DNA of 9,744 nt from a virus (lineage: Duplodnaviria > Heunggongvirae > Uroviricota > Caudoviricetes), in the IMG/VR virus record IMGVR_UViG_3300029469_000071; one strand, given 5' to 3'. A program made the translations under genes and the position numbers. The notes under the pieces are model-generated. The model searched no databases and was not told the DNA's origin. It was given only the letters and a program-made list of their open reading frames with translations. How positions within the stretch are numbered: the stretch's first letter is position 1; the number at the start of each line of letters is the position of its first letter. Of this stretch, positions 1-9,744 are shown piece by piece.

Positions 1-69
1 CTTGCCGGTGTACATCCAGAACGTCGTTCCCGCACCTTTCGTTTTTGCCAGTGGATTTGGTGTGGTCAT
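1..69 (-). CDS. Major tail protein V-like, N-terminal 23 codons only (gene runs off the left edge)
   Basis: Minus-strand translation from ATG at 67-69 gives MTTPNPLAKTKGAGTTFWMYTGK, which resembles the lambda gpV N-terminus (KGAGTTLW motif, recalled). Perfect AGGAGG Shine-Dalgarno at 72-77 (minus) 5 nt upstream. Position downstream of U matches lambda gene order. Confidence 0.6.
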   Translation of the reverse strand, partial: MTTPNPLAKTKGAGTTFWMYTGK

Positions 70-80
70 TGCCACCTCCT

Positions 81-482
81 TTAATTCGTGTACGTGATCT
101 GGTACGTGATTTCCGCCATCGCCCAGGTGGCCATCTCATTATCACGTTGATAGTTAAAACCGAGAGGGATCAGGGTGTCGATGAGTCCGGAAAGTGCCGG
201 TATATCATTCAGGGCCGGGAAAATGGTGCTCTCCATCCACATATCCAGCTCTGAATCCGGTGCCTGTGCCCGGATGAAGACAGCAATATGCAGAACAGCC
301 TGCCAGTCATCTTCATCCGTCATTTTTCCGGTGTACTGAGCATCACTCAGCCACACCGCCACGGCAGGCAGTTCCTGCGCATCAATAAATGCCGGAAGCC
401 CGTCAAAAAACGTGGCGCTGTCTCCACACTGTTCCCGAAGGCGTGCCAGTACGGCCTGGCGGATTTGTGTATGTCGGTTCAT
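81..482 (-). CDS. Minor tail protein U-like (tail terminator), 133 aa
   Basis: ORF-track protein contains ...ATFFDGLPAFIDAQELPAVAVWLSDAQYTG...DSELDMWMES...DIPALS..., co-linear with lambda gpU (131 aa) as recalled. Start chosen at ATG 480-482, which overlaps the Z stop (TGA 479-481) as ATGA, rather than the ORF-track start at 494. Confidence 0.8.
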   Translation of the reverse strand: MNRHTQIRQAVLARLREQCGDSATFFDGLPAFIDAQELPAVAVWLSDAQYTGKMTDEDDWQAVLHIAVFIRAQAPDSELDMWMESTIFPALNDIPALSGLIDTLIPLGFNYQRDNEMATWAMAEITYQITYTN

Positions 483-1057
483 CGGGTCAGCCATAACCTC
501 AGTTGTTGTTTCAGTGCATACCCCAGCTGTTTCGGCATTTCCGCAGCAATGATGCGGTCGCGGGCATCTTCAAATGTCTGTGTCAGCGGTCCGGACAGCG
601 GGATTTTCACCACATCAATGGGGTAACGATTTTTGCCATCGATACGCCGCATCACATGCCAGCGACCATTCGCCAGTTGCTGAATAAACGCATCCCGGAA
701 AAGATATTTACCCACCTTCAGCACACTGCCACGGTACTGCAGTTTTCCACCACGCCGGGCCAGTCTGACCCGGGCTGTCCCCAGCTTAATGGCAGGCAGA
801 TTGCCCCGGTTAACGCGGATCCTGGCCGTCATTTTTCCTGACGGACTGGCTTTAAACACCCGGACACGCTGACGTACCAGTTTCAGGGGGATCCCTTTCA
901 CCTGGTTATCTCCCGCAACGGTATTCCCGGCAACCTGCCGGGTGGCAACCGAGACCGCTTTCTGTGCCACACGGTTTATCGCCCATGCGCTGGCCTGTGG
1001 CACCATACGGGTATCAAGGCTGTTCAGATTGCGGATGGCATTCTCAAGCCCCTTCAT
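479..1057 (-). CDS. Minor tail protein Z-like, 192 aa
   Basis: Same length as lambda gpZ (192 aa) with co-linear similarity (MKGLENAIRNL..., ...NGRWHVMRRIDGKNRYPIDVVKIP..., ...LGYALKQQLR...). GAGGTG Shine-Dalgarno upstream of ATG 1055-1057. Confidence 0.85.
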   Translation of the reverse strand: MKGLENAIRNLNSLDTRMVPQASAWAINRVAQKAVSVATRQVAGNTVAGDNQVKGIPLKLVRQRVRVFKASPSGKMTARIRVNRGNLPAIKLGTARVRLARRGGKLQYRGSVLKVGKYLFRDAFIQQLANGRWHVMRRIDGKNRYPIDVVKIPLSGPLTQTFEDARDRIIAAEMPKQLGYALKQQLRLWLTR

Positions 1058-1068
1058 CCCACACCTCT

Positions 1069-1344
1069 TTACTCAATAAAGATCATTGGCTTACCGTTAA
1101 AGCGTTCATGCCGTGTGACCGTCCATTGTTGTCCGTCATAAACAACGCGATCCCCGCGCCGTGGGCGGTATCCCGAAGAAAACACCACCAGAGAGACCGC
1201 AGGTCCGGACAGAGCATTCAGCTCTGCCAGTGTTTCTCCCGGGATCACAGTCATATCGACATCATTAATCGAGGCTGTCTTTCCCATCTTTCTGACCGTG
1301 ATCGCATCCATACGCGCTGCCAGCCGGGAAAAGGGATCAGACAT
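1069..1344 (-). CDS. Head-tail joining protein, FII-like, 91 aa
   Basis: Sits between the head genes and Z as in lambda; N-terminus MSDPFSRLAARMDAITVRKMG resembles lambda FII MADFDNLFDAAIARADETIRGYMG (recalled). Start overlaps the stop of the upstream gene (1337-1344). Confidence 0.6.
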   Translation of the reverse strand: MSDPFSRLAARMDAITVRKMGKTASINDVDMTVIPGETLAELNALSGPAVSLVVFSSGYRPRRGDRVVYDGQQWTVTRHERFNGKPMIFIE

Positions 1345-1660
1345 TGAGTTTTACCGGCACTTCTTCTGCACTGGTTCCGGCATCTGCCCAGACAACCCCG
1401 ACCAGCGGATCAGAGCCGCTGTTAGTCAGCTGAACTTTTCCGGACTTCAGATAAACCTTCTTACCCGTTTTCATGTCATCCGTTTTCAGCTTAGGCAGCA
1501 TAAACACACCTTCGGTCATGCCGTCGCCTGTTTCACCCTGTGGAATATCGGTCAGCGCCACCGCAAAAACATCGCCCACCTGCACCAGATCTCCGCTGCT
1601 GATGGCTGCACTGGCAACAATCGCCACCGTTTTTCCTTCTTCTACAAAATTCTTTGCCAT
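1337..1660 (-). CDS. Small head-associated protein, 107 aa (DUF2190-like, possible decoration/cement protein; function uncertain)
   Basis: Start set at the internal ATG 1658-1660 (MAKNFVEEGKT...), which has a GGAG Shine-Dalgarno 6 nt upstream; the ORF-track start at 1705 lies inside hairpins. Glycine- and valine-rich, beta-type composition; sits immediately after the capsid gene. Family assignment is from memory only. Confidence 0.5.
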   Translation of the reverse strand: MAKNFVEEGKTVAIVASAAISSGDLVQVGDVFAVALTDIPQGETGDGMTEGVFMLPKLKTDDMKTGKKVYLKSGKVQLTNSGSDPLVGVVWADAGTSAEEVPVKLNV

Positions 1661-1703
1661 AACTGTCTCCGCACAGCCCCGTTCAGGGGCTGATTTCAGG
1701 TAC

Positions 1704-1723
1704 AAAAAAAGCCCTTACGGGCC
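1704..1723 (-). terminator. Candidate rho-independent terminator or attenuator just downstream of the capsid gene
   Basis: On the minus strand: GCCC-GUAA-GGGC hairpin (GNRA tetraloop, plus 1711-1722) followed by a 7-U run (plus A-run 1704-1710), between the capsid stop (1747) and the next gene start (1660). Confidence 0.4.
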
Positions 1724-1746
1724 ATCAGAGTTGTTGTCTGCGACGT

Positions 1747-3705
1747 TTACGCCGTACATTTCACCAGACCGCGGTGATCAACTGGCGCGACACCGGCGTC
1801 AATACGCACTTTCGTTGTCACGCCATCCACACTGAAGCCCTCCATCTGATCAATATATGGCGTATCCACACCGTTGAGATAAGCCACTTCAATCGTATCG
1901 GAGCCTTTTGACGCAGCCAGGTAGAAGGTGGTCTGGCTGTTATCATCAAGACGAGGCTCTGCAATAACGGTCGCAAAATCTTTCACCGGGTTAATAATAC
2001 CGGCGTTAATGTCAGCCCCCTTGACACTTGAGGAGCGAATGACCTGGTTAGCAACAGACTCCATCGCCGTCGGTACCAGTACGAACGCAGGACGAATATT
2101 CAGATGACGCTCCCCCTCTTTCTGAACGCGCATCAACTGGCGGGCTTTATCCAGCGATGCCACGTCCATTGCAGCGCTCTCCAGTACGTTTGCATGTTTC
2201 GCTTTATCGAACAGACTTACATTATCTGTGGAGATTTTCGGGTTAGACGTCAGAATGGCATAAACCAGATCGGCAATAGTGGATTTCGCCGCACGGCCCA
2301 GTTTCATCGGGACATCGGTCAGCATATTCAGATCATCATTGATAATGGCCTGACGGGTGATACTGAACAGCTCGCCATAGGTCGCCAGTGCAATAGTGGC
2401 CTGTTTATCTCCGGTGGTGACGTATTTATATTCCGCCCCTTCACGCACCTGACGCAGAGCACTGAAGCCCCCCATACCCACACGATGGGCAATTTTAAAA
2501 TCAGACAACTGACCTTTCCGCGTCCACTGTTCATAGGTTTCAGGGGCATCTTCCCAGCCCTGCAGAATGGCTTTGTTCGCAACATCCAGCAGAATATTAC
2601 CGAAGTCAGACGTACTGTGTGTGAACGCCGCACCGACCATCTGCATCGGGTTATAACTGGAAACACCAATACCACGTTCAGTCAGTGACATACGGGCATA
2701 TTCACGCAGGGTCATCCCGTTGTAGACATTATCACGTTCGGTTTTTTCAAATCCGGCACGCGCCATCAGCGCCTGGCGGATCCCGTCCCCCACAAAATTA
2801 CCGTTACCGGCATAAATATGAGCCGGGGTATTTTTATTGGATGGCGTGGACTCGCGCCCCATCTCGTTCAACAGCTTTTCGCGGGCCTGCTCCAGCGAAC
2901 ATTCAGGATCGGCAAGACACTGAGCCTGCAGCGTCTGATAACGCCCGCCAAACATGGCAAACAGATCATTAATACCGTTTACACGCGCTTTTTGCTCTGC
3001 CAGTACCTGCGCACGGATACTGTTTTCATCCACCACGGGTGCTGCTGCCTGCACTGGCGTCCGGGAGGCTTCAGATTCATTATCCTGTACGCGTGGAGCA
3101 CTGTTGCGTGGCGGAGTAATCATGTTTCGAATGGATTCCGGCATCTTTTTAAATTCCTCTGTACGTTTTGACTGAATACATGCCATTGCCTTAACGGCTG
3201 GCGTTACCTGATCAGCAAATCCATGTGCCAGACATTCGGCACCGGACATCCAGGTCTCATCCGCCAGCATGGCAGCAATTTCATCGGTGGTTTTCCCGGT
3301 TTTCTGTGCATAAGCGGGTAACAGAACCGCCTCAACCTTATCGAGCAGGTCGGCATAGGTGCGCATGTCCTCCGCATCACCGCCCGTAAAGCCAAATGGT
3401 TTATGAATCATCATGAAGGTGTTTTCCGGCATAATGACCGGGTTTCCCACCATCGCAATGACCGACGCCATTGACGCCGCCACACCGTCGACATAAACGG
3501 TAATGGACGCACCATGTGTTTTCAGCGCATTAAAAATGGCGATGCCTTCAAAGACATCGCCACCCGGTGAATTAATATGGAGATTAATGTGGGTGATATC
3601 GCCCAGTGCATTCAGATCACTGATAAACTGCTTCGCTGTAACACCCCAGAAACCAATCTCGTCATAAATATAAATATCCGCGTCACTCTGGTGACCAGCC
3701 TGCAT
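1747..3705 (-). CDS. Prohead protease (ClpP/S49-like) fused to HK97-fold major capsid protein, 652 aa
   Basis: N-terminal part has a ClpP-like peptidase signature (ADIYIYDEIGFWGV...INLHINSPGGDVFEGIAIFNALK...VDGVAASMASVIAMVG). C-terminal ~320 aa is capsid-like. Start set at ATG 3703-3705 (MQAGHQSDADIYIYDEIG), 14 nt after the portal stop (TAA 3719-3721); the ORF-track start at 3966 would overlap 250 nt of the portal frame. Confidence 0.75.
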   Translation of the reverse strand: MQAGHQSDADIYIYDEIGFWGVTAKQFISDLNALGDITHINLHINSPGGDVFEGIAIFNALKTHGASITVYVDGVAASMASVIAMVGNPVIMPENTFMMIHKPFGFTGGDAEDMRTYADLLDKVEAVLLPAYAQKTGKTTDEIAAMLADETWMSGAECLAHGFADQVTPAVKAMACIQSKRTEEFKKMPESIRNMITPPRNSAPRVQDNESEASRTPVQAAAPVVDENSIRAQVLAEQKARVNGINDLFAMFGGRYQTLQAQCLADPECSLEQAREKLLNEMGRESTPSNKNTPAHIYAGNGNFVGDGIRQALMARAGFEKTERDNVYNGMTLREYARMSLTERGIGVSSYNPMQMVGAAFTHSTSDFGNILLDVANKAILQGWEDAPETYEQWTRKGQLSDFKIAHRVGMGGFSALRQVREGAEYKYVTTGDKQATIALATYGELFSITRQAIINDDLNMLTDVPMKLGRAAKSTIADLVYAILTSNPKISTDNVSLFDKAKHANVLESAAMDVASLDKARQLMRVQKEGERHLNIRPAFVLVPTAMESVANQVIRSSSVKGADINAGIINPVKDFATVIAEPRLDDNSQTTFYLAASKGSDTIEVAYLNGVDTPYIDQMEGFSVDGVTTKVRIDAGVAPVDHRGLVKCTA

Positions 3706-3718
3706 CCTGAACCAGGAA

Positions 3719-4201
3719 TTATTCTTCGGACTGGTCGTCGGTGTGCTGCGGCTCCTGTCGTTTCGTTGCGGCACTGCTGCCTCCTTTATCACTGGCCGGA
3801 TCGGTATCAAATACCAGATCCAGCTTGCGGTTTTCATCAATTTCGGCCTTGCGCCGACGTTTGACATCATCCGGATTACGACCACCAGCACGTACCCAGT
3901 CTGATTCTGTCGCCGCTCCACCACGAATCTGGATTTTCCAGGCCTCAGCCTCCTTAACAGGGTCAATCCACGGCATCACTGGTCCGGAATACACCGCGGT
4001 ATACAGTGAAGAACGGTCAAGATCGCGGGGTAGCCTGATAACACCGGATGCCACAGCCTGTTTCAGCCAGGCACGATACATCGGGCGGGTGACGGCACCA
4101 ATAAACCAGTCCTGCAGGATCAGGTAGCCATCAGTAGACTCAACCAGTTCCTGACGCTGGGCGCTGTACCTTCTGCCCGTAAGGTGAATGGTAAGGCGCT
4201 T
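3719..4201 (-). pseudogene. Portal protein (lambda gpB family), C-terminal ~160 codons only; 5'-truncated
   Basis: Minus-frame translation ...[20 protein letters not shown]...IDPVKEAEA... matches the recalled lambda gpB C-terminal region (...MFLCWLEEAIVRRVVTLP...IDGLKEVQEA...). The frame is open only to 4201 (in-frame stop at 4202-4204), whereas intact portals are 400-530 aa. Confidence 0.6.
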
Positions 4202-5368
4202 TCAGCGGATATAACACTGACGCCGAAAGATATTGGTACGCTTAACTCAACAACAATGTCATTCAGCGGTGGTGCTGGTTGGTTCAAATTAGCAACGGTA
4301 ACCATGCCACAGGCGAGTTCTGTTGTTTCAATTACGTTGATTGGTGGCGCGGGATTTAACGTGGGGTCACCTCAACAGGCAGGTATATCTGAACTTGTTT
4401 TGCGTGCAGGTAATGGTAATCCGAAGGGGATTACTGGTGCTTTATGGCAGCGCACATCGACAGGGTTTACAAATTTTGCCTGGGTCAATACATCTGGTGA
4501 TACTTACGATATTTACGTTGCAATCGGAAATTATGCGACTGGTGTAAATATTCAATGGGATTATACCAGTAATGCCAGCGTAACGATTCATACGTCACCA
4601 GCATATTCTGCTAATAAGCCGGAAGGGTTAACGGACGGTACAGTTTATTCACTCTATACGCCATCAGAGCAGTTTTATCCGCCTGGCGCACCAATCCCGT
4701 GGCCATCAGATACCGTTCCGTCTGGTTATGCCCTGATGCAGGGGCAGACTTTTGACAAATCTGCCTACCCGAAACTTGCAGCCGCTTATCCGTCAGGCGT
4801 GATCCCTGATATGCGTGGCTGGACGATTAAGGGCAAACCCGCCAGTGGTCGTGCCGTATTGTCTCAGGAACAGGACGGCATTAAATCGCACACCCACAGC
4901 GCCAGCGCATCCAGTACGGATTTGGGGACGAAAAACACATCGTCGTTTGATTACGGAACCAAATCCACGAATAACACCGGGGCGCATACCCATAGTATTA
5001 GCGGGACTGCAAATAGTGCCGGTGCGCACCAACACAAGAGTTCCGGTGCATTTGGTGGCACGAACACGAGCATTTTCCCTAATGGTTATACCGCGATTTC
5101 AAATCTAAGCGCGGGGATTATGAGCACAACAAGCGGTAGTGGCCAGACTCGTAATGCAGGGAAGACATCATCAGATGGTGCTCATACCCACTCGCTGTCC
5201 GGCACTGCTGCAAGCGCAGGCGCACATGCACATACTGTCAGTATTGGTGCTCATACGCACTCCGTTGCGATTGGTTCACATGGACACACCATCACCGTTA
5301 ACGCTGCTGGTAACGCGGAAAACACCGTCAAAAACATCGCATTTAACTATATTGTGAGGCTTGCATAA
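4184..5368 (+). CDS. stfQ: Side tail fibre protein, C-terminal receptor-binding fragment (5'-truncated), 394 aa as read from a GTG
   Basis: Tail-collar-like motif ([36 protein letters not shown]) followed by repeated GAHTHS / GAHAHT / GSHGHT His-rich motifs typical of Stf and T4 gp37-like fibre tips. The ORF opens with GTG, has no convincing RBS or promoter, and abuts the portal fragment. Symbol is from recalled K-12 Qin synteny. Confidence 0.7.
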
Positions 5369-5943
5369 TGGCATTCAGAATGAGTGAACAACCACGGACC
5401 ATAAAAATTTATAATCTGCTGGCCGGAACTAATGAATTTATTGGTGAAGGTGACGCATATATTCCGCCTCATACAGGTCTGCCAGCAAACAGTACCGATA
5501 TTGCACCGCCAGATATTCCGGCAGGCTTCGTGGCTGTTTTCAACAGTGATGAGGCATCGTGGCATCTCGTTGAAGATCATCGGGGTAAAACGGTTTATGA
5601 CGTGGCTTCCGGCGACGCGTTATTTATTTCTGAACTCGGTCCGTTACCGGAAAATGTTACCTGGTTATCGCCGGAAGGGGAGTTTCAGAAGTGGAACGGC
5701 ACAGCCTGGGTGAAGGATACGGAAGCAGAAAAACTGTTCCGGATCCGGGAGGCGGAAGAAACAAAAAACAACCTGATGCAGGTAGCCAGTGAGCATATTG
5801 CGCCGCTTCAGGATGCTGCAGATCTGGAAATTGCAACGGAGGAAGAAATCTCGTTGCTGGAAGCATGGAAAAAGTATCGGGTATTGCTGAACCGTGTTGA
5901 TACGTCAACTGCACAGGATATTGAATGGCCAGCACTGCCGTAG
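5368..5943 (+). CDS. tfaQ: Tail fibre assembly protein (Tfa chaperone), 191 aa
   Basis: Directly follows the tail fibre gene with a TAATG stop/start overlap (5366-5370). Length and sequence ([79 protein letters not shown]...) match the lambdoid Tfa family as recalled. Confidence 0.85.
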
Positions 5944-6040
5944 GGTAAAACATATAAATTCTATAATTAGATGTATCTTTCCATTTACGGCAAGGAAGGG
6001 GGCTTGGAACACGTAAAGCATCTCACACCGAGATTATTTT

Positions 6041-6631
6041 TTATATGTCAGGTGTCTGAAGTTTTGCTTTGGCTCTTAAAATGGTTTGCCGCGAGGTTTT
6101 GAATTCCCGGGCAATGGCACTTATACTTACACCTGACTTAATTCGTTCGAATACCACCTGTTTCTGTTCTTCATTTAACACAGGTGGTCGACCAAAACGT
6201 TTCCCTGCGCCGCGGGCTCTTACTATCCCGGAATGAGTGCGTTCAAGTAAAAGGTCTCGTTCAAATTCAGCGACTGCTGAAATTACTTGCATCATCATTT
6301 TTCCTGTTGGACTGGTCAGGTCAATGCCACCCAATGCTAAGCAATGCACTCTGATACCTGTTTCGGTCAGTTGTTCCACTGTTTTCCTGATATCCATTGC
6401 ATTACAACCAAGGCGATCCAGTTTTGTCACAATCAATTGATCACCACATTTCAGGCGAGCAAGCAACCGGTTAAAACCAGGACGCTCACTGGTTGCTGCT
6501 GAGCCGCTAATGTGTTCTTCGATTATTTGCTGAGGTTTGATTTTAAAACCTGCACTTTCGATTTCCCGGCGTTGATTTTCGGTGGTCTGATCCAGCGTTG
6601 ATATCCGACAGTAAGCAAAAATTCGAGACAT
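6041..6631 (-). CDS. pinQ: Serine recombinase of the DNA-invertase type (Pin family), 196 aa
   Basis: N-terminal resolvase/invertase catalytic domain with the conserved serine in YCRISTLDQ, the [11 protein letters not shown] motif, and a C-terminal helix-turn-helix ([22 protein letters not shown]). Convergent with tfa, as recalled for pinR/pinQ in K-12 Rac/Qin. Choosing Q over R rests only on the neighbouring ydfK/ydfJ/ydfI. Confidence 0.85.
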
Positions 6632-6947
6632 AGTGAGACTCTATACGAAATTGGTGTTCATATCATAATGCATCTCAGAAAATAATTATGATTATTTTTG
6701 TGCATATTTGTATGTACACGTTCGAAAATAAACGAATGCGTATGCAACCCCGTAATTTTGGTGAGACCCAAAATCGATTTTGTGAAAAATGGCTTTAACT
6801 CGGTTTGTTTTTCGAGTTCCGGGCGGACTCAAGGAAGAAGAATAGTGTTGCGTGTTATTTTAACCAGATTTCAAGTTGTTTGGTCGTGGAAAAGTGGAGC
6901 AAAATGTTGTTAAAGTGGAAAAATGATAAAAAAGTAAGTTTATTATA

Positions 6948-7181
6948 TTACATTTTACCATTTAAATTTTGGTTGTCTTTAAGAACTGATATCGCTGTTT
7001 GTAATAATTCTTTGTTATCCAGCCATGATTTTTTCTTTATGTTTCCTTCAATGTAATCAAGCAATGTTCTGGTATTGATAGGTCTTCCCTGTTTTGCTAC
7101 TTCCACTACAGCATCCCCTAGGATAATTCTTACTTCAGGAAGCTGCGCAGGGAACCACTTTAGGGTGTCTTTTGATTTCAT
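6948..7181 (-). CDS. ydfK: Small prophage-borne cold-shock-induced protein YdfK/YnaE family, 77 aa
   Basis: Start set at ATG 7179-7181 (MKSKDTLKWFPAQ...), which has an AAGGAA Shine-Dalgarno 8 nt upstream; the ORF-track start at 7214 adds 11 residues with no RBS. Sits between pin and ydfJ. Identity and the cold-shock annotation are recalled, not verified. Confidence 0.7.
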   Translation of the reverse strand: MKSKDTLKWFPAQLPEVRIILGDAVVEVAKQGRPINTRTLLDYIEGNIKKKSWLDNKELLQTAISVLKDNQNLNGKM

Positions 7182-7450
7182 GAAGATATTCCTTAAAATA
7201 TTATTGATTTTCATTGCGATATTGTATGTCTGATTCAGGATATGTTGACTTATACATCGGTTTTGTCTGGGTTATTGGATATGCCAATCCCTAATTTTAT
7301 TAGGGCATGACTAAAAATGCTGAATATGATAAGGAGAGATGTGATTATCAGTATGCTGTTCATATAGCCTCGAATTAGTAATGTGTTATATATGATATAG
7401 TTGACAATTTTTATCTTGGGTGTTCTTAAAGTTCGTAGATAAACATTGTC
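7182..7450 (-). promoter_or_regulatory. AT-rich upstream/leader region of ydfK; putative promoter and structured 5' UTR
   Basis: About 270 bp of strongly AT-rich sequence upstream of ydfK with several -10/-35-like hexamers on the minus strand (for example TTGTCA at 7401-7406 read on minus) and a perfect 7-bp hairpin CCCTAAT-TTT-ATTAGGG at 7289-7305. No single promoter can be singled out from sequence. Confidence 0.3.
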
Positions 7451-7682
7451 GTTTCAGGTATACAGGAATGCTAACAGGTGGCAGCAAAAATCAGGCGGTT
7501 TATGGCGCAAGCTGAAGCGGCAACTGCAAACTATCTTATGCAGAGACTCTACACGGATTGGGTTTAAAAGTATACATAGATAACAGTTTTTATCTGAAGA
7601 AGAAAAATATCAAGGTGATATAGCCTATATGCCTATGATGCGGAGGAATGAATGTGATGGGAGTGATGTATCTGAATAGTTG

Positions 7683-7723
7683 AAAAACCGCAGACACGCC
7701 TTATGCAAGAACGTGCTGCGGTT
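7683..7723 (-). terminator. Candidate rho-independent terminator on the minus strand
   Basis: Imperfect inverted repeat: AACCGCAG-A-CACG (7686-7698) pairs with CGTG-CTGCGGTT (7712-7723) around a 13-nt loop. Read on the minus strand the stem is followed by a 5-U run (plus A-run 7683-7687 overlapping the last stem pairs). GC-rich stem inside an otherwise AT-rich region. Confidence 0.35.
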
Positions 7724-7966
7724 GGCTGGTAAATTTTTCGATAGTGTGAGTATTGAATGATTTCCAGCCGTTCTTGATTTTACGCATAAATCCATGAAAA
7801 AACTACTTATCTGTTGGGGAGTTTTTTTGGGGCATATATGGGACAGAAATAGGCCCCAGATAGACACTGAGATCGAACTTAGGATGCTTTTTAAAAAATG
7901 CAACTATCTGAAAAAACCTAGAAAACGCCAAGGAAACCACAGGATGGGAAAAAACACCTGTGAATT

Positions 7967-9250
7967 ATGGATTTCCAGTTATATTCGCTCGGCGCAGCGT
8001 TAGTGTTTCATGAAATATTTTTTCCTGAATCATCAACGGCAATGGCGTTAATTCTGGCAATGGGAACCTACGGTGCAGGTTATGTGGCGCGTATTGTCGG
8101 AGCATTTATTTTCGGCAAAATGGGCGACAGAATAGGGCGTAAAAAAGTGCTCTTTATTACCATCACCATGATGGGGATCTGTACCACCTTAATTGGTGTG
8201 TTACCGACCTATGCACAGATTGGTGTTTTTGCACCCATCTTGCTGGTGACGTTGCGTATTATTCAGGGGTTGGGTGCAGGTGCGGAAATTTCCGGTGCCG
8301 GTACGATGCTGGCGGAATATGCGCCAAAAGGTAAGCGCGGAATTATCTCCTCATTTGTGGCTATGGGAACTAACTGCGGAACCTTGAGCGCAACGGCAAT
8401 CTGGGCCTTTATGTTCTTCATTCTCAGTAAAGAGGAACTGCTGGCGTGGGGATGGCGTATACCGTTCCTGGCGAGCGTTGTCGTGATGGTCTTTGCTATC
8501 TGGTTGCGTATGAATCTGAAAGAAAGCCCGGTCTTTGAGAAGGTTAACGACAGTAACCAACCGACAGCAAAACCTGCACCTGCTGGTAGCATGTTCCAGA
8601 GCAAATCCTTCTGGCTGGCAACAGGGCTGCGTTTTGGTCAGGCGGGTAACTCCGGGTTAATTCAGACTTTCCTTGCAGGCTATTTAGTGCAGACGTTATT
8701 GTTTAACAAAGCAATTCCAACAGATGCATTGATGATCAGTTCGATTCTCGGCTTTATGACCATTCCGTTCCTTGGTTGGTTATCCGATAAAATTGGTCGC
8801 CGGATCCCGTATATTATTATGAATACCTCCGCGATTGTGCTGGCATGGCCAATGCTTTCTATCATTGTAGATAAAAGCTATGCCCCGAGCACCATTATGG
8901 TTGCACTGATTGTGATTCATAACTGTGCGGTGCTGGGATTATTTGCTCTGGAAAACATTACCATGGCAGAAATGTTCGGCTGTAAAAACCGCTTTACCCG
9001 GATGGCTATTTCTAAAGAAATTGGTGGTCTTATCGCTTCCGGTTTTGGTCCTATCCTGGCGGGTATTTTCTGCACCATGACGGAATCCTGGTATCCGATC
9101 GCCATTATGATCATGGCATATTCAGTGATTGGTTTAATCTCTGCGCTGAAAATGCCAGAGGTGAAAGACCGTGATTTAAGTGCGCTGGAAGACGCTGCGG
9201 AAGATCAACCGCGTGTTGTAAGAGCTGCGCAACCTTCCAGAAGTCTGTAA
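7967..9250 (+). CDS. ydfJ: MFS transporter (metabolite:H+ symporter family), N-terminally truncated at the prophage junction; probable pseudogene or remnant, 427 aa
   Basis: Contains the MFS loop motif GKMGDRIGRKK and multiple hydrophobic spans. The ORF begins at ...DFQLYSLGAALVFHEIFFP..., which aligns with the end of TM1 in relatives such as KgtP ([20 protein letters not shown], recalled), so the N-terminal tail and most of TM1 are missing. In-frame stop at 7961-7963 and no Shine-Dalgarno before the ATG. Confidence 0.8.
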   Translation: MDFQLYSLGAALVFHEIFFPESSTAMALILAMGTYGAGYVARIVGAFIFGKMGDRIGRKKVLFITITMMGICTTLIGVLPTYAQIGVFAPILLVTLRIIQGLGAGAEISGAGTMLAEYAPKGKRGIISSFVAMGTNCGTLSATAIWAFMFFILSKEELLAWGWRIPFLASVVVMVFAIWLRMNLKESPVFEKVNDSNQPTAKPAPAGSMFQSKSFWLATGLRFGQAGNSGLIQTFLAGYLVQTLLFNKAIPTDALMISSILGFMTIPFLGWLSDKIGRRIPYIIMNTSAIVLAWPMLSIIVDKSYAPSTIMVALIVIHNCAVLGLFALENITMAEMFGCKNRFTRMAISKEIGGLIASGFGPILAGIFCTMTESWYPIAIMIMAYSVIGLISALKMPEVKDRDLSALEDAAEDQPRVVRAAQPSRSL

Positions 9251-9259
9251 ACCCTTAAT

Positions 9260-9290
9260 CCCTTCTCTTACCGGAGAGGGGATTTTTATT
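9260..9290 (+). terminator. Candidate rho-independent terminator after ydfJ
   Basis: Hairpin CCCTTCTCT-TACC-GGAGAGGGG (9260-9281, with G-U pairs) followed by ATTTTTATT (9282-9290), starting 10 nt after the ydfJ stop. Confidence 0.5.
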
Positions 9291-9338
9291 CATATAACAA
9301 AACATATAGCTTGCCATATTTATATTTAAGGAATTGTT

Positions 9339-9744
9339 ATGGGAAATAATTTGTTATCAGCAAAAGCGACACTCCCTGTTTATGATCGTAATAACCTGGC
9401 CCCAAGAATTGTTCATTTAGGCTTTGGTGCATTTCACCGTGCGCATCAGGGTGTGTATGCCGATATTCTTGCTACGGAACATTTCAGTGACTGGGGATAT
9501 TATGAGGTCAACTTAATCGGCGGCGAACAGCAAATTGCCGATTTACAACAGCAAGATAATCTTTATACCGTTGCGGAAATGTCGGCCGATGTGTGGACGG
9601 CTCGCGTCGTTGGCGTCGTTAAAAAAGCCTTGCACGTACAGATTGATGGCTTAGAAACCGTGTTGGCTGCGATGTGTGAACCGCAAATCGCGATTGTCTC
9701 TCTGACAATCACCGAAAAAGGGTATTTCCACTCTCCGGCGACCG
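9339..9744 (+). CDS. ydfI: Mannitol dehydrogenase family oxidoreductase (putative D-mannonate oxidoreductase), N-terminal part; runs off the right edge
   Basis: AAGGAA Shine-Dalgarno 6 nt before ATG 9339. N-terminus [42 protein letters not shown] carries the GxGxFHRAHQ nucleotide-binding signature of UxuB/MtlD-type dehydrogenases. Open to the end of the window. Confidence 0.8.

Follow-up and report, generated by a model that had tools for sequence, protein, structure and literature searches.

Seven HxH motifs in a truncated lambda-type side tail fibre gene at the right end of a Qin-type prophage

A dense row of histidine pairs in a fragment of a tail fibre gene can be read as a metal-binding needle, as a nucleotide repeat prone to change its copy number, or as an accident of composition, and if the gene has lost its 5′ part one may also ask whether it is still of any use. 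These questions are raised by a locus within a 9,744-nucleotide stretch of viral DNA (termed here "the window"; IMG/VR record IMGVR_UViG_3300029469_000071), where an initial annotation made from the letters alone had pointed out a collar motif followed by repeated His-X-His units. The relationship between T4 gp37 and lambda Stf has been known since the 1980s, the structure of the iron-binding HxH needle of gp37 was reportedly solved by Bartual in 2010, and the His boxes are said to have been recognised by Tetart in 1996 as sites of duplications in T4 gp37. Together with the annotation of stfQ in K-12 and a family description from 2022, this makes our finding already known in every respect addressed here, and only the recurrent truncation point could lead to something new.

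The gene and its surroundings

In our reading, to which we give a probability of about 0.9, positions 4166-5368 on the plus strand are what remains of the 3′ part of a side tail fibre gene of the lambda type, and the allele is stfQ, from the Qin prophage at ydfJ. The window shows a Qin-type lambdoid prophage, at its right end, integrated in ydfJ of Escherichia coli. Its sequence to the right of 4166 agrees to 99.4-99.6% with numerous E. coli chromosomes, and the genes there are, in order, stf′, tfaQ, pinQ, ydfK and ydfJ. The minus strand of positions 1-4168 encodes head and head-tail functions of a prophage of this kind, among them a fusion of ClpP protease and major capsid protein and the C-terminal portion of the portal protein. 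The stf′ product matched PHROG 295 "tail fiber protein" (E = 5.6e-149); no NCBIfam model matched stf′ or tfaQ. The features of the locus are as follows, where the domain limits were taken from PMC6957217.

3719-4165, minus strand: C-terminal fragment of the prophage portal gene, in the orientation opposite to that of intact Qin-type prophages
4166-4168, no strand: rearrangement junction with GTA microhomology, antisense portal DNA joined to stf codon ~573
4166-5368, plus strand: stf′ (stfQ allele), 400 codons and a stop, 3′ fragment of a lambda-type side tail fibre gene
4670-4885, plus strand: collar domain, N-terminal part, equivalent to gp37 811-881 (59/71 identical)
4886-5035, plus strand: putative needle stem, ascending strand, equivalent to gp37 882-931 (36/50 identical)
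4889-4897, 4985-4993 and 5027-5035, plus strand: His boxes 1-3, within the ascending stem
5000-5180, plus strand: cassette variable at the DNA level among E. coli alleles, including His box 3 and the tip
5036-5182, plus strand: putative distal tip or receptor-specificity loop, equivalent to gp37 932-965 (9/34 identical; 49 residues, 34 in T4)
5183-5314, plus strand: putative needle stem, descending strand, equivalent to gp37 966-1009 (30/44 identical)
5183-5191, 5225-5233, 5252-5260 and 5279-5287, plus strand: His boxes 4-7, in the descending stem, the last three with a 27-nt period
5315-5365, plus strand: collar domain, C-terminal part, equivalent to gp37 1010-1026 (16/17 identical)
5368-5943, plus strand: tfaQ, tail fibre assembly chaperone (Caudo_TAP, E = 3.6e-43)
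6041-6631, minus strand: pinQ, serine DNA invertase (Resolvase, 2.5e-36, and HTH_7)
6948-7214, minus strand: ydfK
7967-9250: ydfJ, truncated MFS transporter gene

In E. coli K-12, stfQ (b1547) carries the same tip allele at 99.35% nucleotide identity over window positions 4671-9744. The two loci share the chromosomal site (ydfJ, ydfK, ynfT), the tip cassette, tfaQ and pinQ. They differ upstream of the collar, where K-12 has another module (…TALTDNTQG…) and another truncation junction (nohA joined to stf), whereas the window keeps 400 codons joined to the inverted portal fragment.

How much of the gene is missing can be told from intact alleles of 973-987 aa, with which the similarity of stf′ begins at 4166 (codon ~573), directly behind antisense portal DNA; the N-terminal shaft is gone, just as the initial annotation had stated. 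The fragment thus lacks its first ~573 codons together with the start codon and the tail-attachment end. It contains no ATG start, and the earliest possible one is a GTG at 4184, which opens an ORF of 394 aa.

The HxH motifs and their counterparts in T4 gp37

The tail-collar-like motif noticed earlier sits at nt 4751-4834, in the frame that is open through 4166-5368 on the plus strand. Pfam Collar (PF07484) matched ORF residues 168-215 (nt 4685-4828) at 47.6 bits, above its gathering threshold of 24 (E = 1.6e-12). Pfam PF03335 "Phage tail fibre repeat" also matched (29 bits, cut-off 20), and its best stretch is a His-box unit. Where the first count had been "at least six", there are exactly seven HxH motifs (SHTHS, GAHTHS, GAHQHK, GAHTHS, GAHAHT, GAHTHS and GSHGHT, with first bases at 4889, 4985, 5027, 5183, 5225, 5252 and 5279), which span 133 residues and contain 14 of the 15 histidines of the fragment. 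Composition-preserving shuffling of the C-terminal 251 residues gave a maximum of five such motifs and never seven (0/100,000). Given this result and the two Pfam matches above threshold, the protein-level observation is correct and lies far beyond chance.

A phmmer search against the PDB returned the T4 gp37 receptor-binding tip, known from a crystal structure (2XGF, residues 785-1026; E = 2.6e-82), with ORF residues 151-394 aligned to chain positions 15-242. Identity to gp37 799-1026 amounts to 154/228 residues (68%), and all 14 histidines of the motifs align with those of gp37 (H883/885, 915/917, 929/931, 966/968, 980/982, 989/991 and 998/1000), so that what had been put forward as an analogy with the T4 fibre tip is true homology. 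Along its length, the trimeric needle of gp37 binds seven iron ions through these HxH pairs, and residues H929 and H931 have been shown to be indispensable (PMC6957217; PMC11705849). Among 20 aligned alleles with different tips, 13 of the 14 histidines are invariant and the other shows a conservation of at least 90%. That the pattern arose by chance or from low complexity and has no part in the structure finds its one point of support in a region rich in Gly, Ser and Thr; this vanishingly improbable explanation is refuted by the shuffles, by the invariance of the histidines across alleles, and by their one-to-one match to the metal ligands of the crystal structure.

The sole strongly divergent stretch between the two proteins is the equivalent of gp37 932-965, where stf′ is 15 residues longer. 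It coincides with the published specificity region (PMC9659904), in line with the initial description of this part as the receptor-specificity end of the fibre. Because the loop is longer than that of T4 and keeps merely 9 of 34 residues, its receptor specificity may differ from that of T4.

A family of T4/lambda receptor-binding proteins with conserved flanks and a downstream chaperone has already been described (PMC9659904), and stf′ falls among its tips: about 215 C-terminal residues are homologous to gp37 812-1026, with conserved flanks (gp37 812-931 and 966-1026) enclosing the divergent 932-965, HxH pairs at the iron-ligand positions, and a chaperone gene of the gp38/Tfa type, tfaQ, whose start overlaps the stf stop codon. 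A complete fibre gene of the kind found in the family is absent, since stf′ is without the N-terminal shaft and the tail-attachment region. With gp37 it shares the architecture of collar, needle and tip by sequence, the seven HxH at aligned positions, the C-terminal 11-residue end, and the chaperone gene directly downstream. The chaperone itself is of the lambda type, however, being 96% identical to Tfa of HK630 and 30% identical to T4 gp38, and stf′ is a 5′-truncated prophage remnant whereas gp37 is part of the long fibre of a myovirus. The likeness to the T4 short tail fibre gp12 and other PF07484 proteins consists of the Collar domain with its GAPIPWPS…PDLRG-type motif; the match to the short tail fibre in PDB 9CUY (E = 1.6e-7) covers the collar only, and the HxH stem lies outside it.

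By homology to gp37, three chains would be expected to intertwine, with the collar domain bearing a long six-stranded needle. Each HxH would then supply two histidines per chain, placing six of them octahedrally around one metal ion, and seven such ions would be stacked on the three-fold axis; their assignment as Fe is borrowed from T4. A distal knob that touches the receptor would be formed by the loop separating His boxes 3 and 4, and from T4 and lambda we infer that the receptor may be of the OmpC or LPS type. TfaQ, encoded directly downstream, would be required for trimerisation, again as in T4 and lambda. An AlphaFold2 model of the monomer, computed from a 20-sequence alignment, reached a mean pLDDT of 44 and a pTM of 0.18, values too low for the model to be of use.

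Repeat number and exchange of the tip

The initial annotation had also seen near-identical nucleotide units that could undergo slippage or recombination. Such units are not there: Tandem Repeats Finder detected no array in the His-box region, the seven 21-nt His-box units are pairwise identical at 9-17 of 21 positions (43-81%), and the longest exact direct repeat is the 12-nt TGGTGCTCATAC at 5176 and 5245. The spacings of the His boxes are irregular as well (96, 42, 156, 42, 27 and 27 nt), the last three boxes alone forming a weak 27-nt periodic run with 13-17 of 27 positions identical. Slippage is a poor description of this region because there is no tandem array, the units differ from one another, and their spacing is irregular.

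The number of motifs points the same way. Against a slippage-prone contingency repeat, with copy changes at high frequency altering the length or specificity of the needle, stands the finding that 106 of 112 close homologues in a protein collection have exactly seven HxH. Among the exceptions, at least one (P0026) is due to an internal deletion and two (P0045 and P0071) have garbled, frameshift-like tips. The motif is thus kept at equivalent positions in the homologues, whose lack of it had been named in advance as evidence against a needle. It is over long distances that the number varies, with eight HxH in lambda-type HK630, five each in P2-like SW5 and PY100, four in Klebsiella phage Kp4866-3 and nine in Felix O1, all of which retain the collar and the shared C-terminal 11-residue end. 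These differing copy numbers (4, 5, 5, 7, 8, 9), and an extra nine-residue unit of lambda-type Stf that falls exactly at the 27-nt spacing of stf′, are what can be said for slippage. Set against the undetected tandem repeats, the differing units with their short exact repeat, and the constancy among close homologues, they leave a contingency repeat very improbable. Needle length appears to vary only over long evolutionary distances, and the extra unit of lambda-type Stf suggests that gain or loss of an HxH unit does occur but rarely.

With HK630 as the representative of ur-lambda, the lambda-type Stf/Tfa pair belongs to the same family and has the same stf-tfa gene order; its tip region is 68.5% identical to that of stf′ (tblastn). 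Lambda-type Stf differs by its eight HxH with an extra SFDYGTK repeat and by another tip cassette, and lambda has no invertase adjacent to these genes, where pinQ lies near stf′. The receptor bound by lambda Stf is OmpC (PMC12617516).

Of the two processes proposed earlier, slippage is the weaker, the units not being near-identical and their number being seven in 106 of 112 close homologues, whereas recombination is supported, in the form of exchange of a tip cassette between His-box flanks. In five E. coli alleles, the left conserved block ends at ~4997-5011, just past His box 2, and the right one begins at ~5161-5186, at His box 4; the flanks are 89-97% identical and the interval 46-59%. At least 12 unrelated tip sequences occupy this interval; counted between His boxes 3 and 4 they are 38-59 residues long. 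Positions 4740-5368 were matched in 3905 of 5426 complete E. coli genomes and across the middle in 1000 of these, and the lower-ranked genomes among the matches listed align as two flanking pieces. Another boundary of the mosaic falls at ~4674-4704, a short way upstream of the collar. Because the flanks are conserved around a divergent interval, with at least 12 tips and mosaic boundaries, these sequences support the idea that specificity is exchanged when recombination takes place in the conserved flanks, the His boxes and the collar. The His-box stem would then serve as a constant scaffold, on which the tip cassette is exchanged among E. coli prophages. In this sense stf′ offers a clean example of a constant stem whose tip, between His boxes 2 and 4, appears to be swapped; at least 12 types of this cassette exist in E. 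coli prophages, which is of interest for the engineering of host range.

Another way to vary a fibre tip is known from the invertible segments of the Din family (P/Pin of e14, G/Gin of Mu and C/Cin of P1), which resemble the window in having a Pin-family invertase beside the 3′ end of stf and tfa; here just 97 bp separate tfaQ from pinQ. The window differs from them in holding a single stf′-tfaQ set, with no alternative 3′ end and chaperone in the opposite orientation. StfE of e14 has, like stf′, a collar and the shared C-terminal 11-residue end, and differs by its single HxH. No crossover site of the pix/hix-like kind (26 bp, …AAACC NN GGTTT…) was found near stf, tfa and pin at up to 3 mismatches, and a candidate inverted repeat pairing 4169-4182 with 5985-5999 does no better than chance, its score being reached in 258 of 2000 shuffles. 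PinQ is known to drive the inversion that activates StfE2 of prophage e14, and the authors found inversions only in e14, not in Qin (PMC12529663).

State of the gene and its truncation point

Is the truncated gene still functional? Since its 5′ ~573 codons, start codon and tail-attachment end are gone, stf′ is probably a non-functional remnant. This is also indicated by the lack of an ATG, of a usable Shine-Dalgarno spacing ahead of the GTG at 4184 (by inspection of the sequence), and of any sigma-70-like promoter on the plus strand over 3800-6100, as well as by a serine between His boxes 5 and 6 (nt 5240), where at least 90% of the alleles, and also K-12 and T4, have glycine. The replacement of a near-invariant glycine fits relaxed constraint, yet the same variant occurs in a full-length allele (L039), itself annotated as frameshifted, and in other mosaics. 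For this reason the shared variant is uninformative on whether the truncated alleles descend from one ancestor, and we rejected it as proof that they do.

We infer that stf′ is not expressed. Counting against the remnant reading, K-12 annotates its own stfQ fragment as a CDS; given this annotation, the intact 394-aa ORF from the GTG, and the presence of the exact protein in 161 blocks of a public collection, stf′ may yet be expressed. The tip could in that case be made from the internal GTG at 4184, folded by TfaQ and released as a free needle that masks a porin or LPS receptor, providing superinfection exclusion or anti-phage defence in the manner of e14 StfE2. Such a role would find support in the intact ORF, directly followed by an intact chaperone gene and with pinQ nearby, and in the wide spread of the exact protein. 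It also has precedents, as a Stf chimera of a cryptic prophage blocks T2 adsorption (PMC12529663), and gp37 799-1026 alone, co-expressed with chaperones, folds and binds OmpC and LPS (PMC6957217). However, the plus strand over 3800-6100 offers no promoter-like site and the ORF is preceded by antisense portal DNA, the Shine-Dalgarno spacing before the GTG is unusable, the reported inversions concern e14 and not Qin (PMC12529663), and the near-invariant glycine is replaced. Other lineages, moreover, truncate stf inside the collar, which argues against selection for a folded product. We therefore consider a free needle unlikely, and prefer to regard stf′ as a remnant whose main biological role, if any, would be that of donor DNA for recombination with incoming lambdoid phages. 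Lambda is known to gain DNA from the stf-tfa region of Qin by recombination at ~2e-6 (PMC3945230), and other stf remnants may likewise be donor DNA for infecting lambdoid phages.

The junction at which stf′ was cut reads GCGCT-GTA-CCTTC, with 3 nt of microhomology. In strain C5 an intact prophage with a 973-aa stf occupies the same locus, and window positions 4166-9744 correspond to C5 23412-28990 whereas positions 2-4168 correspond to C5 10656-6491 reversed. From these coordinates, the window looks as it would after inversion of 16.9 kb with end points at portal codon ~353 and stf codon ~573; one of the two junctions is visible. If the inversion was a simple one, the reciprocal junction …CAACTATAACGGCACTTAC/CCGACCATTCGCATTATC… would be expected ~16.9 kb to the left of 4166. 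The exact junction at 4166 was not found in 5426 complete E. coli genomes, in GTDB representative genomes, or in nine genomic contexts of the exact 394-aa protein.

A Pin-mediated origin of this junction was considered and rejected. There is no hix/gix/pix-like site, the inverted repeat with the tfaQ-pinQ spacer stays at chance level, pix of e14 lies in an unrelated coding context (NLGLGEG), and the resemblance over CCTTCT(G)CCC is too short.

The same nucleotides, CGGGTA/CC (4166-4168), were seen joined to four different left-hand partners. The first is the antisense, inverted portal DNA of this window. The second is a small terminase gene (DUF1441), in 6 complete genomes (L002, L030, L032, L036 and L037), and the third is a 70-aa gene upstream of portal (L031, L033, L035 and L038), with the 8-nt microhomology CGGGTACC. 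The fourth is a lambda-type gpA gene (L034), in 11 complete genomes, where the prophage is flanked by biotin-synthesis-type genes that we take to be the bio/att-lambda region. All junctions that could be compared with parental sequence have 3-8 nt of microhomology, and the site is intact in 1272 complete genomes.

It is conceivable, though doubtful, that the hot spot at CGGGTA/CC reflects an unrecognised break-and-rejoin process with a site preference, which would prune lambdoid prophages and spare the module of tip, tfa and pin. The alternative is ordinary microhomology-mediated decay. Chi was rejected as the cause of the hot spot, the sole GCTGGTGG lying at 3882-3889 on the minus strand.

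A second breakpoint, immediately before ATGCGTGGCTGG at 4811, lies inside the collar. At the DNA level it is joined to Nu1 and gpA, and according to the protein sequences P0068 and P0085 also to J and to an internal point of stf; three of these junctions were checked at the DNA level and the fourth was deduced from protein sequence. Protein sequences also suggest further recurrent break points in stf, and in another strain (L025) an IS903B end lies 14 nt upstream of the 4166 site.

Recurrent truncation of stf and an inverted head block

The window carries a 5′-truncated remnant of the side tail fibre gene, and its truncation point, CGGGTA|CC at 4166-4168 (the bar marks the break), is common to rearrangements with four different left partners: the inverted portal gene of the window itself, a DUF1441 terminase, a 70-aa gene that lies before the portal gene, and a lambda-type gpA. 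Besides the window, the loci from other genomes that bear on this breakpoint are L002, L014, L025 and L030-L038. Microhomology is 3-8 nt at the junctions that could be set against parental sequence, and in another strain an IS903B insertion was found 14 nt upstream of the same point. The uninterrupted site is present in 1272 complete genomes, and a search of 5426 complete E. coli genomes did not find the window-type junction of portal and stf.

Strain C5 has an intact Qin-type prophage, and relative to it the window shows the head and portal genes in reversed orientation (window 1-4168 against 4166-9744), an arrangement of sequence consistent with a 16.9-kb inversion that would have run from about codon 353 of the portal gene to about codon 573 of stf. 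The reciprocal junction of this proposed inversion falls outside the window.

A second recurrent breakpoint in stf and possible further ones

A second recurrent stf breakpoint was located within the collar domain at window 4811 (ATGCGTGGCTGG, 'MRGWTIKG') in loci L015-L020. At the DNA level, nucleotide 4811 is joined either to Nu1 (GAATAT|ATG) or to gpA (CCCTT|ATG), and protein sequences add a fusion to J in P0068 and a fusion to an internal stf point in P0085. The Nu1 break (…GAATAT|) is identical in L015 and in the nohA|stfQ junction of K-12 itself. Comparison of protein sequences suggests that |TALTDNTQG, |YTGVGSC and |TDANWSPW are also recurrent stf breakpoints, with several partners each.

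Mosaic boundary and Gly-to-Ser variant in the fibre tip

A second mosaic boundary lies directly upstream of the collar, at window ~4674-4704. In K-12 stfQ and several other alleles, similarity to the window starts only at about 4671-4704, and the preceding module is unrelated to that of the window.

At nt 5240 the window has AGT (Ser) where most alleles have GGT (Gly), so that Ser replaces a nearly invariant Gly between the fifth and sixth HxH motifs (His boxes 5 and 6) of the needle. This Ser was found in 7/7 examined alleles truncated at 4166, in L039, a full-length allele itself annotated as frameshifted, and in L040, a different mosaic; the stretch around it has exact matches in ~27 complete genomes.

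Other genes of the window

Other genes in the window:
6041-6631 (-), the orphan gene pinQ, which encodes a serine invertase of the Pin family
7967-9250 (+), ydfJ, an MFS transporter gene without its N-terminus
1747-3966 (-), a gene that fuses a ClpP-like prohead protease with a major capsid protein (CLP_protease + Phage_capsid_4)

No pix/hix-like crossover site was found in the window, which holds one set only of the stf 3′ end and tfa. According to a 2025 paper (PMC12529663), PinQ works in trans on the P segment of e14 and so gives rise to an anti-T2 protein. ydfJ is the chromosomal gene that the Qin prophage interrupts. For the protease/capsid fusion, the mechanical ORF (739 aa) is longer than the annotated product (675 aa).
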